Positions 8,516 to 20,000 are shown, counted from the first letter of the stretch. The stretch: 20,000 bases of DNA from Vermamoeba vermiformis (GCA_045837725.1 JBEWZL010000235.1:421450-441449); one strand, 5' to 3'. Numbers and translations are program-made. Notes: generated by a model not told the origin, from the sequence alone.

Positions 8516-9144
8516 TCAAGAACCAAAACCGTAGAGTGTTCTGCCTTGTCTCTTGAGCGAGTACACGACGTCCATTGCAGTCACGGTCTTGCGCTTTGCG
8601 TACTGATAAAACTGTTAGGGTACAATATTTCGTCACTTGGCTAAATTAAGATGTGCACGAATTTGAATTGAGAAGTGATTGTTTGGTGTTTTTTGCACCT
8701 TAACGCTCCGATTATTGTGCAATCTTAAACTTTCTTGTTTTGAATGAAAAGCTAAGTGTATTTTAGCGTACGCACGCGGTCACCATACTTCCTTCAAAAA
8801 ATTTGGCGTTCCATTCACAGTATTGTAATTTCCTGGTCTTAAATTGACAGAGGACACCTACTTCAGTGTAAGTCACGGCGTCACGCACAACCTTCTCCAA
8901 GAACACGTGCAACACGCCGCGCGTCTCTTCGTAGATCAAGCCGCTGATTCTCTTCACTCCTCCACGACGCGCAAGTCTTTTAATCGCGGGTTGGTAACAT
9001 GAGTGATTGATTCGCGGTATAGCTGTTAAACTCAGATTAGAGACGGAATTGCACTGGAAGGTTGCGTACTCTTCTTCTGCGCTTGACACCGCCTGTTCCG
9101 ATGCCTTTCAAGCCAAGACCTTTGCCTTTACCTATTCCTGACAT
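8516..9144 (-). CDS. H4: Histone H4, divergent variant, 3 exons; apparent 1-nt frameshift (possible pseudogene or sequence error)
   Basis: Exons 9144-9070 ([25 protein letters not shown]), 9022-8862 (...[43 protein letters not shown]) and 8602-8516 ([28 protein letters not shown]). Exon 2 is 161 nt between two phase-0 introns, one base short of staying in frame. Confidence 0.92.
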
Positions 9145-16361: not shown

Positions 16362-16967
16362 TATTGTAGTAGGTGAATTCAACGGAAATTGTTAAATGAT
16401 CAAGTATGTCGTTGCCAACAAAGCGCTAAAATAAAACAAAACGAACTTTCGTAACCACAAGATGCACCATTTTCATTACTGTGCAAGGAATGGACGACAG
16501 ATTATAAATATTTATTTCAAAATAATAACACGAGTATTGCAGAGGTATGGAAAGATTACGCTCGAAAAAAGTTGATTCGTTTGTGATATTTTAAAATTAA
16601 TTAATCGATGTTTTATCCGCTAATTATTTCGTATTACGTTGCTTGAATTTATTTTTATCAGAGAACAATTATTTCGTCTCTGATCTGTTGCGTTTTTAAT
16701 TTCGCTATTGAAGTAACGAAGATAATTTCTTCAAGGGTTGGCGTAATAGTCGGCAATTTATTTAGACATATGCATAGTTGCAATAAGTTACTCACCACTT
16801 TAATAGGTTGGACGAATTACATTTTGTGAATCGCTCGGGTGCATACAAATGACACGTTTCCGGGTCAATGTGAGTCTTTTAGTACCATTAAACTGATTTG
16901 ATTCATTTTAACAATATTCTCATTAGAAGTGCCACACAGCTCCGAATTAAAAGTGCGACCGAACAAA

Positions 16968-17300
16968 ATGCATCTGGCAACGAAGACGCAATTTCAGCTG
17001 CTCGTGCTCGCCTTCTATTGCGTAATTTTTGTAGACGCAACTCTTACTACAATAACCACTTTGGATAACCCAACTGGCATTGTGACTTTTGATGATCTTG
17101 GTTTCTCGACACCGACCGACATCCGTGGCAACGTTGTATTACTAAACACTCCAGACCAGAAGATTATTTTATCAAGCAACAATGCATCAATTACTGACTA
17201 CTCTGTTGGCGCGAACGGCAATTGGGACGGATCTAAAGCTTGGTTCAACAGCACCGGTGGGTTAGGGTTAGGGAAAACGGAGAGATCTGGCGGTAAGTAG
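16968..17300 (+). pseudogene. Secreted protein gene, probably truncated by the insertion starting at about 17259
   Basis: Signal peptide MHLATKTQFQLLVLAFYCVIFVDA, then a beta-rich segment ending NGNWDGSKAWFNSTGG. The frame then reads through the telomeric tract (LGLG) and stops 7 codons later inside the hairpin region. Confidence 0.5.
17259..17273 (+). repeat. Short interstitial telomeric repeat GGG(TTAGGG)2
   Basis: Exact sequence GGGTTAGGGTTAGGG, 2.5 units of TTAGGG with the G-rich strand on +. Confidence 0.8.
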
Positions 17301-17528
17301 ATCTCGTTTGAATGTATTATTTTATTTACAATTCAATAGTCATATAATAGATTATATGTATAAATATGAGATTTCCTTATTAATTATTTAGCAGGGTTCA
17401 CGGGCGAGCGGAGCGAGCCCGTGTAAAACGCGATCCAGCAGATTTTTCCGCTGGATTTTTGGCACGAGATTCTGCGCGAACTTTACTCGTGTCATTAATT
17501 GAACAAGTAACAACAACAACTCGTGTCA
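17275..17528 (+). repeat. Array of short inverted repeats (stem-loops) plus one direct repeat
   Basis: GAGATCT/AGATCTC (17282-88, 17299-305); CATATAAT/ATTATATG (17341-58); CACGGGC/GCCCGTG (17399-423); ATCCAGC/GCTGGAT (17433-56); TGGCACGAG/CTCGTGTCA (17460-94). Direct repeat ACTCGTGTCA at 17485 and 17519. Confidence 0.8.
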
Positions 17529-17535
17529 ATATTAG

Positions 17536-17637
17536 GTAAGTTAATTTTACCAATGCAGCTTAGAAACAAAATTACGCTCCGTTTCTATTTTAAATCCGAA
17601 TCCGATCAAAGACTAACTAGCTTCGCATTCATTATAG
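17536..17637 (+). other. Probable 5'-UTR intron of the recombinase transcript
   Basis: AG|GTAAGT donor at 17536, GACTAAC branch site at 17611-17617 and TAG acceptor ending at 17637, 60 nt before the ATG. Confidence 0.55.
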
Positions 17638-17696
17638 GGTTACATTTAAACCAAGGCTGAGTGATTAGTGTATTATTTAAAAGTGAAGCTATTCTT

Positions 17697-19972
17697 ATGG
17701 CTGGTAAGTTCCGTTCTTAATTAAATTCGAGTCAGATCTTTAAATTAATTTATTTTTACGCAGAATTCAGTTGCGAGCAATGCAACAAACAATTCTCGAA
17801 GCTATCGAAGCGTAATTATCACGTGAAAGACTGCCACCCTGCCGATATTGACAGTTTAAAGTGTAAATTATGTGCGAAACAATTCCAAGCTGTTTCTTCT
17901 CGTGTTCGACATGAAGATCAAGGCTGTCCTGCGGAAAAATCAGTTGTTTTAGTCCCAACAGCAGCAATAAACACAGAGCGTGTAAATCATCGCCACAAAA
18001 AGCAAAAAAATGTTTTGTCAGCAAAATCATTGCGCATTGTTCAAATGTATCGTGAATATTTACAGCACGGAGGAACATCAGTGTATTTGCTCAGCCAAGG
18101 CAAGAAAAATCTCCAAGGTGCTAGCATTGACACTTACTCAACGCACTTGACCGATTTCCTTGCTTATATTGAGGTAAGTCAATTTGCCTGTAAACGCAAT
18201 TATAACTCTTTCATGCACAGGAGTCGCTTCCAAATGCCGACATTATTGATCACTTCTTGCGCGTGAAGACAGTTAAGGATTACATTACGTATTTGGAGCA
18301 ATCAAAGTACACGCAAAAGACTATTCTTAATCGACTACTCTCACTGGAGCGATTGTGTGGCTTGCTTGATGAAAAGTTCGACTTAATCTTCAATGGCCAA
18401 ATATCTGATCGCAAGGGCTCAACTCAGACTCGTACTGCTATCAAGACTACCTTTGATTGGGTCAAAGCGCAGGCAAAGATGACAAGTCCTATAGCAAACA
18501 AGGAAACCAAAGTTCGCAACAGTAGAGAAGCTCTCGAATCTGATAGTCGTTGGATTGCAGTTGCAAAGTTGTTTGAAAAAGAAGCTGAGCTAAAACCTGT
18601 AATGGACACTTTACTTGATAACATTGCCGCCAGCTCAGAGCCGTAAGTCAACTTAAGCATTTATTTGATTGACTAACTCAGCAATAGACCTTCAAAGAGA
18701 GATTTGCAACAGATTCAACAGTATATAATGTATTTAATGGTTATTCAACAACCACCACTAAGAGCTCAAAACTTTGACTTGATTATTCTTGATAAACTTG
18801 AATCTCCTCAAGAAGCCTCTCATAATGGAATTGTGTTTGAAGAAAAGAGTGTTATTTTACAGTACAGCAAGTACAAAACGCATGCGTAAGTCAAATAACT
18901 TTATTTATTACAATTCTAATTGGTTATTTTCAGGTCATATGGTTTTGTTAAGTTTTACCTCTCAGACACATTAGCTGGCTATGTTCGACGCTTTTACAAT
19001 GATGTTCGTCCTTGGCTATTCAAGGATAAAGCAAATGCTCCCACTATTGGTTCTTACTTGTTTGTTAATCAATATGGAGAAAGGCTACAAAGCATTGGAG
19101 CTTATTTTAAAGCAGCTATGAAGAAGTACTTTAACCAAGAGATTACTATTGGCATCATTCGCAAAGTAATGGAAACAGCAGTGAGTGAATGCTCCTTGTT
19201 TAACTCAGCTATTCGCGATAACCTGTCAATGGCAATGCTTCATGATCCAGAAACGGCACGAAGATACTATGTGTGCAAGGACAGTGAAGAGGCCAGTAAA
19301 ACAATTAATGGACAGTGGCAACAGCTGCGTCAATTCTACTCAACTCCATCATTGACGACTCCTGCAGTTGAACAAGTAGTCGAACCTGAAGCTATTGAAG
19401 TGCCAATGCAAATAGAACAGCCTATAAGTCCTATACCTTCAAATAACAACATGCGCACAGACCAATCTCCAATTGCAACAAGCGCACTTGAGCTTGTGCC
19501 AACCAGCTCTTTGTCTCAACGTTTTTCTTGGGTATCTCCTACAAAACAACTAAGTGCAGTGCCAAGCCTTGTTGCCTCTCCTTCACATGATGATAATAGT
19601 GAACAAGCAGAGGATGTTCGAGAAATTGCTAATTCAATTGCGTCAAATTTGGTGCCTGCAGCTCAGCCAACAAAAAAGCCACAGTCCGACTTTAAAACTT
19701 TGCAACGACCTGGAGATTGGCCTTGTTCTTTTTGTGGATACATCAACTTCTCTTACCGTATGGTTTGTAACCGCTGTGGAAAAGCAAAGAACAAAAGAAG
19801 TGCTTATGAAGAACATGAACAAAAACAAAAGAAAGCAAGGTTTGGCTCTGATATCACTGAAGTCCTTAGCAAGTCTACAAATAAGCAAGGTGAAGTTATA
19901 TACAAAGTAAAGTCCAGCAAAAAAGGAGAACTCTGGGTAAGAGCCAAGCACGTGCCGCAGCACTTGTTGTAA
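17697..19972 (+). CDS. Multidomain tyrosine recombinase (2 zinc fingers - integrase core-binding-like - YR catalytic - RanBP2 zinc finger - chromo-like), 691 aa, 5 exons
   Basis: Exons 17697-17703, 17764-18173, 18221-18642, 18688-18885 and 18934-19972 sum to 2076 nt, in frame, all with GTAAGT donors. Catalytic-type residues: PPLR (R 18761), KYKTHASYG (K 18875), GIIRK (R 19160) and MLHDPETARRYY (H 19241, Y 19265/19268). Confidence 0.85.
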
Positions 19973-20000
19973 AGTTTAAATCTTTGTAGTTAGTTGTAAA

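Follow-up and report, generated by a model that had tools for sequence, protein, structure and literature searches.

The stretch of DNA discussed here, the window, comprises 20,000 nucleotides from Vermamoeba vermiformis (GCA_045837725.1 JBEWZL010000235.1:421450-441449). It is eukaryotic in character: its introns are short (GTAAGT...AG), and long open reading frames (ORFs) of the bacterial type are absent. Toward its right end lies the left part of a mobile element with a gene for a tyrosine recombinase (YR), and a short hairpin is present between the left end of the element and the gene. The sequence-only reading that drew attention to the hairpin had tied it to a YR, and the tie is borne out, as the hairpin belongs to a YR-encoding repeated element. 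The features are collected in Table 1, where L001 is a related locus from a metagenome.

Table 1. Features of the left part of the element, in window coordinates
Feature	Position	Strand	Remarks
TTAGGG-type telomere repeats	17259-17273	+	GGGTTAGGGTTAGGG; between unique flank and element
Left sub-terminal non-coding segment	17274-17398	+	125 nt, begins AAAACG; gapless alignment to L001 128-252
Best-conserved non-coding block against L001	17367-17436	+	best 25-column windows 22-23 of 25 identical
43-nt module	17392-17434	+	common to other sequence contexts, in the same and related genomes; in RNA reads
Hairpin	17399-17423	+	CACGGGC-GA-GC-GGA-GC-GA-GCCCGTG; 7-bp stem, tandem G.A/A.G, 2-bp stem, GGA triloop
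Second hairpin	17433-17457	either	ATCCAGC...GCTGGAT, then T run; -8.9 kcal/mol on the - strand
Putative leader intron	17536-17637	+	GTAAGT...AG, from sequence; matching GTAAGT...YAG signals in L001
YR gene, five exons	17697-19972	+	17697-17703, 17764-18173, 18221-18642, 18688-18885, 18934-19972 (stop included)

The recombinase gene and the left end of the element

The five-exon model of the YR gene was read from the sequence and its translations. The product would have, in this order, C2H2 fingers, a SAM-like domain, a catalytic domain, a RanBP2-type zinc finger and a conserved C-terminal tail. Exons 2, 3 and 5 of the window are collinear with a relative of 710 residues (P0019). In this protein and in a second relative (P0020), C2H2 fingers and a RanBP2-type finger are found together with a SAM-like integrase N-domain, which was above the Pfam cut-off in these 2 of 10 relatives. 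Pfam matched the catalytic domain in none of the 10 relatives scanned, and in the single exons of the window it found the RanBP2 finger only. In a third relative (P0017), the AlphaFold2 (AF2) model reached a predicted local distance difference test score (pLDDT) of 92.7 with an alignment of 60 rows, and 35.7 from the single sequence. Its top Foldseek matches are Cre (E 1.1e-4), XerA, Tn1549 Int, XerD and lambda Int; one match has E <= 0.001, and the recombinase matches listed have probabilities of 0.85-1.00. Sequence search of the PDB gave no YR match with P0017 and only RanBP2 fingers with the protein alignment of the family (A1). Candidates for the catalytic R, K, R, H and Y can be seen by eye in the translations of exons 4 and 5. 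Judged from the homology to the modelled relatives and from these candidates, the window gene is a tyrosine recombinase.

The C-terminal part of the protein (19690-19972) consists of the RanBP2 finger followed by a tail, ...GEVIYKV..KG..WVR.KHVP..LL, that is present in most relatives and is chromo-like by eye.

Four sequencing runs were aligned with positions 16500-20000 at 80% likeness. Two of them (X1 and X3) are DNA contigs, one (X10) consists of contigs that are spliced and hence of RNA, and one (X21) of raw RNA reads. In X10, loose ends at 17763 and 18174 coincide with the joins of exons 1 and 2 and of exons 2 and 3, in a copy that is 95-99% similar to the window. A related organism thus expresses and splices the YR gene. 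In X1, the summed contig depth is 3-4-fold higher over 19659-20000.

The element appears to be multi-copy and can be described as Crypton-like and intron-containing. Neither reverse transcriptase nor long terminal repeats (LTRs) are found in its visible 2.7 kb or in L001, and its visible part has no Rep/HUH gene. The window ends 28 nt past the stop codon, which places the right end of the element outside it. Our guess for the length of the unit is about 3 kb; many relatives are on contigs of about 2.8-2.9 kb.

At its left end the element abuts a telomere-type tract that has two overlapping matches of GGGTTAGGG, where 0.03 are expected. The left end of L001 has the same construction: an unrelated flank is followed by GGGTTAGGG (119-127) and then by AAAACG. 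P0012, a YR truncated in its C-terminal tail, reads through into the same repeat-plus-AAAACG junction, as seen from its translation. The TTAGGG/AAAACG junction is thus present in three independent cases (the window, L001 and the P0012 tail), with 1.5-2.5 repeat units. These sequences, taken with an X1 contig described below, show units of the element that join TTAGGG repeats by their left end and can be truncated distally, with telomere repeats or the next unit following the truncation. The junctions and the read-through in P0012 suggest head-to-tail arrays at chromosome ends. Two histories both fit the left junction: site-specific insertion into telomere repeats, or the copying of a subtelomeric repeat from one chromosome end to another. 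In L001 and in another related locus, L003, the visible 3' tail runs into a different repeat and not into telomere repeats.

A unique X1 contig ends at 17288, beyond which the summed depth climbs. In X1 the summed contig word depth, which does not measure copy number, amounts to 155.7 over the flank and to 455-760 over the element. One X1 contig has at least 20 nt of telomere repeat directly after 17642, where the element leader itself reads GGGTTA (17637-17642). The contig looks like a truncated copy healed by telomere addition.

The hairpin, its conservation and its reuse

The coordinates and letters given for the hairpin in the sequence-only reading match exactly, and so does its description as a GC-rich island in AT-rich DNA, the adjacent 500-nt bins having 33-42% GC. 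The predicted fold is alike on both strands: an outer stem of 7 bp, a 2x2 loop, an inner stem of 2 bp and a triloop, 9 bp in total. The 2x2 loop is symmetric, and the fold has no bulged (extrahelical) bases. Viewed as inverted arms, the sequence has in each arm 7 perfect positions, or 9 imperfect ones (2 mismatches), around a centre of 7-11 nt. With DNA parameters the + strand folds at -8.4 kcal/mol (z -3.2, with 1 of 200 shuffles as good) and the - strand at -8.0 kcal/mol. By stability the hairpin is third among the 39,952 25-nt windows on both strands of the 20 kb, and second when counted as a locus. The 25-mer is present once in the window, with no other match at up to 3 mismatches, and none of the other 15 perfect 7-bp inverted repeats in the window (loops of 3-11 nt; 16 in all) has, as it does, at least 5 G/C per arm. 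The full design was defined as 5 bp or more of outer stem, then GA, 2-4 bp of inner stem, a G..A loop, a second GA and the outer stem again. Chance would yield 0.027 such designs per 20 kb with both strands counted (8 of 300 mononucleotide shuffles contained one). As it is both rare and well folded, the hairpin is a real observation and not a chance feature.

The identification of a GC-GNA-GC mini-hairpin at the centre was sound. The inner seven nucleotides, GCGGAGC at 17408-17414 and GCGTAGC in L001, satisfy the sequence definition of the published GCGNAGC motif (PMC13037366). The claim that the fold is strand-specific fared less well. Preference for the + strand is chemically plausible and amounts to 2.1 kcal/mol with RNA parameters, in the window and L001 alike, but in the DNA nearest-neighbour model, which omits the special stability of GCGNAGC mini-hairpins, the asymmetry is just 0.4 kcal/mol.

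Conservation of the hairpin could be followed in one diverged relative. A metagenome scan with alignment A1 gave 44 pattern matches and three confirmed loci (L001, L002 and L003), of which only L001 spans the hairpin region; L002 is cut short at either side, and L003 begins 63 nt before the ATG. A search for YR relatives gave 30 pattern matches in viral contigs and 66 in genome contigs, with none confirmed in either. The exact 25-mer has no match in metagenome contigs, and a degenerate pattern that includes the L001 variant has none in genome contigs or in viral contigs.

The L001 hairpin, CATGGGCGAGCGTAGCGAGCCCATG, differs from that of the window at 3 of 25 positions. The third pair of the outer stem is changed on both sides from C-G to T-A, which is a compensatory change, and the middle base of the loop is changed so that GGA becomes GTA. 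The two G.A mismatches persist, as do the GC pairs of the inner stem and the outer bases of the loop (G and A); of the nine pairs eight are invariant and one is changed on both sides. By comparison, the whole design survives random triple substitutions in 0.12-0.15% of trials with Watson-Crick pairing and in 0.9-1.7% when wobble is allowed. Over the entire 5' non-coding region, 237 of 421 columns are identical (56%) and 44% of positions differ, and the hairpin forms the core of the best-conserved block there (Table 1). The distance from the junction to the hairpin is 125 nt in both loci, and the alignment is gapless along this stretch in spite of a much lower identity. A check for conservation and compensatory change had been proposed together with the hairpin, and in this one relative it favours the hairpin, as one pair has changed in a compensatory manner while the tandem G.A and the G-N-A loop are retained. 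On this evidence the hairpin is in all probability maintained by selection, with pairing kept. A fixed host factor that reads the arms of the duplex palindrome is disfavoured by the symmetric arm change in L001, which fits base pairing or a co-evolving protein encoded by the element.

A hairpin of the same design is found beside the YR element in L003. In each of the three loci the element gives way, at a different position, to a repeat that begins TATACAACACGAAC: after the 3' tail in L001 (2906-2940) and L003 (2390-2497), and inside the ORF in L002 (3673-3695). In L003, 21 nt into the repeat on the + strand (2421-2452), is GGCTGTCC-GA-GGCC-GTTA-GGCT-GA-GGGCAGCC, with an outer stem of 8 bp, tandem G.A, an inner stem of 4 bp and a G..A loop. 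This hairpin is not homologous to that of the window, and the chance expectation for the design in the 2.5 kb of L003 is about 0.003 when scaled from the shuffles. Since it needs two G-T/U pairs, the fold can form on the + strand only, and as RNA the + strand is favoured by about 10 kcal/mol. A pattern search for the design in 29.1 kb, on both strands, gave three instances (the window, its homologue in L001, and L003), all on the + strand. This is the best hint that features of the + strand matter. L003 also has a 12-nt duplication at its junction with the TATACAACACGAAC repeat. In L002, positions 1-1710, upstream of the YR fragment, resemble by eye the integrase and chromodomain-like end of the pol of an LTR-retrotransposon, and L002 looks like a nested, repeat-rich region.

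The hairpin is the core of a module that occurs elsewhere with different flanks, as indicated by the loose ends of aligned sequences before 17387-17398 and behind 17434 in all four runs. In other copies of the module, the left flanks are in some cases window-like and in others unrelated and themselves palindromic, and the right flank has a different short hairpin. Among the best-supported differences, variants are found at 17396, 17397, 17424 and 17427 and none inside the hairpin; 131 more differences exist beyond those listed. None of the 97 reads of X21 lies wholly on the window; each matches it in part. By counts of loose ends, 93 of them are on the module, where they run 50-100 nt past it on both sides, and 4 are in 19761-19818. 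An X10 contig likewise carries the module in another context, at least 50 nt inside the transcript. The module is transcribed somewhere, as the X21 reads show, and the first mates are uninformative as to the strand (+ 14.5 vs - 19.1). X21 has zero coverage of the YR gene (17436-19658) and also of the unique flank, so it may come from a strain without the locus and allows no inference on expression of the gene. A 3.1-kb stretch of the region is matched in part by runs of 14 studies, which include several environmental metagenomes and three other labelled organisms; no RNA run is listed as a carrier of it.

Several other features of the region were considered. The second hairpin of Table 1, only 10 nt past the first, is the best 25-nt hairpin locus of the whole window; it is not conserved, L001 having no equivalent pairing there. 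Rfam gave no match at gathering score in the whole window, and in 17200-17760 just three chance-level matches (E 1.5-8.6), none centred on the hairpin. A bacterial-type terminator was rejected as the identity of the hairpin. A Pol III gene was rejected because box-B-like letters are not conserved in L001, and the last exon of an upstream ORF (acceptor at 17391/17394, frame ending at 17424-17426) because the frame is not conserved in L001 and has no RNA support. Chance accounts for a 20-nt inverted match between 17436-17455 and 17927-17946, whose 11-nt seed is expected many times per 20 kb. Two further repeats, a 5-nt direct repeat (AGCAG) that flanks the module and an inverted repeat near the left end (GAGATCT/AGATCTC, 17282-17288 / 17299-17305), are lacking in L001 and are chance-like.

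The unique flank carries an ORF on the + strand (16969-17256) with a signal-peptide-like start; its frame enters the telomere-type repeat and stops at 17300. An X10 transcript contig tracks the flank to 17256 and then continues into sequence absent from the window. A splice site is possible at the point of departure, as 17257-17258 is GT. The flanking gene may be truncated or interrupted here, since the transcript continues differently. Far to the left, an ORF on the - strand (8763-9107) has a histone H4-like stretch, by eye.

Possible functions of the hairpin

From the sequence comparisons, the hairpin is best explained as a cis element that depends on base pairing, is maintained by selection and belongs to the non-coding DNA just inside the left end of a Crypton-like element. 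Its fixed spacing of 125 bp and its sub-terminal position in a recombinase element suggest that it serves, in cis, the machinery of the element itself. We tentatively favour a putative recognition site for the recombination machinery of the element, a plausible proposal that falls somewhat short of probable and leaves undecided whether the site is read in duplex or in extruded form. The proposal draws on the rarity of the hairpin, its conservation and pattern of change, the spacing, the reuse of the module, the neighbouring YR gene and a precedent in nimaviruses. A dimer of the recombinase and/or its N-terminal C2H2/SAM-like part would bind the site, which might be recognised in duplex form or, once extruded, as a hairpin of the + strand. 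The bound hairpin could help to assemble a complex that acts at the TTAGGG/AAAACG junction, or at the module itself; its being held exactly 125 bp from the end would suit assembly of a complex for the junction. We infer the binding by an element protein, the form bound and the effect alike.

Several observations weigh against a recognition site. The support from covariation consists of one sequence pair, and with two rows the shuffle control is uninformative (238 of 500). A recombinase site might have a partner, but no second copy or half-site was found, at up to 1 mismatch, in 17200-20000, near the L001 junction or in the visible 3' tails. The features that only the + strand has, namely the G.A pairs, the G-N-A loop and the G.T wobbles of L003, are needless for a site that is purely duplex. 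The lack of a listed variant in the hairpin in spite of differing flanks could mean a function dependent on the host or on RNA, or recent copying. Moreover, low-depth variants inside the hairpin are possible, since the variants come from the best-supported differences.

A serious, if rather unlikely, rival explanation is that the hairpin acts in RNA, within the 5' leader of the YR gene or another + strand transcript, where it would serve translation control, stability or protein binding, or that it is a promoter-proximal structure. It is upstream of the YR ATG in the same orientation, before the putative leader intron, and the + strand is the sense strand. RNA energies favour this strand by the amounts given above, strongly so in L003 with its two G-U pairs, and the module is present both in most X21 reads (93 of 97) and inside an X10 transcript, in which run a copy of the YR gene is expressed and spliced. 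However, a conserved ATTTTTGGCACGA motif downstream of the hairpin could mark the start of transcription, which would leave the hairpin outside the mRNA. X21 has no reads on the gene of this copy, and the strand of its reads is uninformative. The mini-hairpin is also far weaker as RNA, a related octamer melting at 39 C against 76.5 C as DNA (PMC13037366). Finally, an mRNA element has no obvious requirement for a fixed distance of 125 nt from a DNA end.

The sequence-only reading had proposed that the + strand folds as single-stranded DNA (ssDNA) and is a substrate for recombination or for replication priming, on the models of attC, CTX attP and the origins of ssDNA phages. This we regard as improbable. 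In its favour, the inner GCGGAGC/GCGTAGC fits a motif that is extraordinarily stable in DNA and has single-strand roles (PMC13037366). In the loop the N varies but the G and A do not, and the tandem G.A is likewise retained; all three instances of the design in the 29.1 kb searched are on the + strand. Nonetheless, nine base pairs are too few for a two-arm YR site, and the fold offers no bulges to set the choice of strand. The hairpin is not the site where the element joins host DNA, since the junction is 125 nt upstream and L001 homology extends on both sides. The visible element has neither a Rep/HUH nor a reverse transcriptase gene, and the DNA nearest-neighbour model gives almost no strand asymmetry. 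We know of no single-stranded stage in Cryptons, which also counts against such a substrate. No hairpin is mentioned for Cryptons in the available part of Kojima and Jurka (2011; PMC3212892), and titles and the beginnings of abstracts in the literature searched describe no such ssDNA site.

Somewhat less credible still is a palindrome without function, either a passenger of recent copying or gene conversion, or a tiny repeat spread among subtelomeric arrays. Subtelomeric repeats become homogeneous through recombination, and the identity of copies within a genome could reflect recent copying rather than selection, the argument for which stands on one diverged relative. Yet in that relative 44% of the surrounding non-coding positions have changed while the block, its spacing and its pairing are kept, and beside the YR element of L003, where about 0.003 are expected, there is a hairpin that shares this rare design but is independent and not homologous.

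A highly speculative extension, to which we give little credence, would place the hairpin in a class of + strand, G.A-bracketed mini-hairpins that mark the chromosome-proximal ends of head-to-tail units on chromosome ends. The YR element and its neighbours may then form a telomere-linked array. The strand of the hairpin is continuous with the G-rich telomere strand, and it may become single-stranded after resection of the C-strand or, where a unit is copied onto an end, be the strand that is synthesised first. The hairpin may in that case act at chromosome ends as a true ssDNA signal, be it for priming, for capping or for loading of the recombinase. If true, this would be a case of a eukaryotic tyrosine recombinase acting on or next to folded single-stranded DNA.

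Least probable of all is that the hairpin is a duplex crossover site like lox or an att core, at which copies of the module would exchange units; the TTAGGG tract and the 125-nt segment would then be the tail of a unit that is circularly permuted. In favour, imperfect arms of 9 bp and a centre of 7 bp are within the size range of YR core sites (Cre, Xer, lambda), in which inverted binding arms flank a centre of 6-8 bp, homology breaks sharply at the edges of the module and window-like left flanks occur with an unrelated right flank. Against this, the contact between unique flank and element lies at the TTAGGG tract, not at the module, both in the window and in L001, and the linkage of left and right flanks in other module copies is not readable from contig data.

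The hairpin is of wider interest because the cis sites of eukaryotic tyrosine-recombinase transposons are almost wholly uncharted. A hairpin whose pairs are maintained at a set distance from the end is a concrete site for binding and recombination assays. As its centre is a textbook DNA mini-hairpin sequence, simple work with oligos could decide between a duplex, a DNA hairpin and an RNA hairpin.

Comparison with known systems

Sites of the attC and CTX attP type are several-fold longer than the hairpin described here; they rebuild two binding boxes and a spacer, have extrahelical bases and are the crossover point. The present case resembles them in having a tyrosine recombinase beside an imperfect palindrome with strand-specific features. 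However, the analogy with these sites, drawn when the hairpin was noticed, fails in size (9 bp only), in bulged bases (none) and in position, the hairpin not being the crossover point. The sub-terminal palindromes of IS200/IS605 and the 3' hairpins of Helitrons are also short hairpins at a fixed short distance inside an end. They are read by HUH (Rep-type) enzymes on single-stranded DNA, and in Helitrons the hairpin is about 10 nt before a CTRR terminus, in an element with a Rep/helicase gene. In our case no HUH gene is seen, and the hairpin is no mark of a terminus because L001 homology is present on both sides. A Helitron end was rejected for these reasons: no CTRR-type terminus follows the hairpin, homology continues past it and there is no Rep/helicase ORF. 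Yeast Y' elements are subtelomeric head-to-tail repeat units that are separated by short telomere tracts and encode a helicase. The likeness here is in the telomere tracts between units and in the variable distal loss (the P0012 tail, and the X1 contig after 17642), whereas the unit encodes a tyrosine recombinase and not a helicase.

Crypton DNA transposons are the subject of Goodwin, Butler and Poulter (2003). Elements of this type have short direct repeats of 4-6 bp at both termini that match the target, and several copies with presence/absence polymorphism. The present element resembles Cryptons in being small and apparently multi-copy, with one intron-containing YR gene and, in its visible part, neither reverse transcriptase nor LTRs. 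It differs from them in that its left end abuts TTAGGG repeats. In the available part of Kojima and Jurka (2011; PMC3212892), Cryptons are described as without recognisable terminal structures. The published model has them recombine through a short sequence at the end, as the present element may do, and copies are active in Chlamydomonas (PMC9977147). The protein here has an N-terminal C2H2 region, a RanBP2-type finger and a C-terminal tail in place of GCR1_C or other domains (PMC3212892). Unlike our element with its conserved sub-terminal hairpin, Cryptons have none described in these two sources as available (PMC3212892, PMC9977147). A limited literature, main texts in part and no supplements, likewise yielded no Crypton hairpin and no telomere-linked Crypton of fungi or protists.

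In the GCGNAGC mini-hairpin, two G-C pairs close a G-N-A loop (Hirao and co-workers, as reviewed in PMC13037366). The inner 7 nt of the hairpin fit GCGNAGC / GCGNNAGC in the window and in L001, and the C-GTTA-G loop of L003 is an acceptable variant according to the same review. Natural roles of the motif are in ssDNA, at phage priming sites and in the promoter hairpin of the N4 virion RNA polymerase, which has the same GCGGAGC (PMC13037366). In our case the motif is nested in a longer stem by way of two G.A mismatches, it belongs to a eukaryotic mobile element, and its folding is only predicted.

The TTAGGG junctions and the distally truncated head-to-tail copies suggest a telomere-associated lifestyle for this recombinase element. 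In the literature searched, in so far as it was available, such a lifestyle was found just in giant viruses of crustaceans. There, nimavirus YRs with C2H2 and a SAM-like domain insert at telomere repeats, and some of them are encoded, like the present gene, by multiple exons (PMC10871703). The nimavirus genomes are of 200-360 kb and have an arthropod pentamer repeat on both sides (PMC10871703), whereas the element here is of roughly 3 kb with a hexamer repeat seen on one side. Likened by description and not by protein comparison, the nimavirus family would be the closest precedent for a telomere-linked tyrosine recombinase with C2H2 and SAM-like parts.

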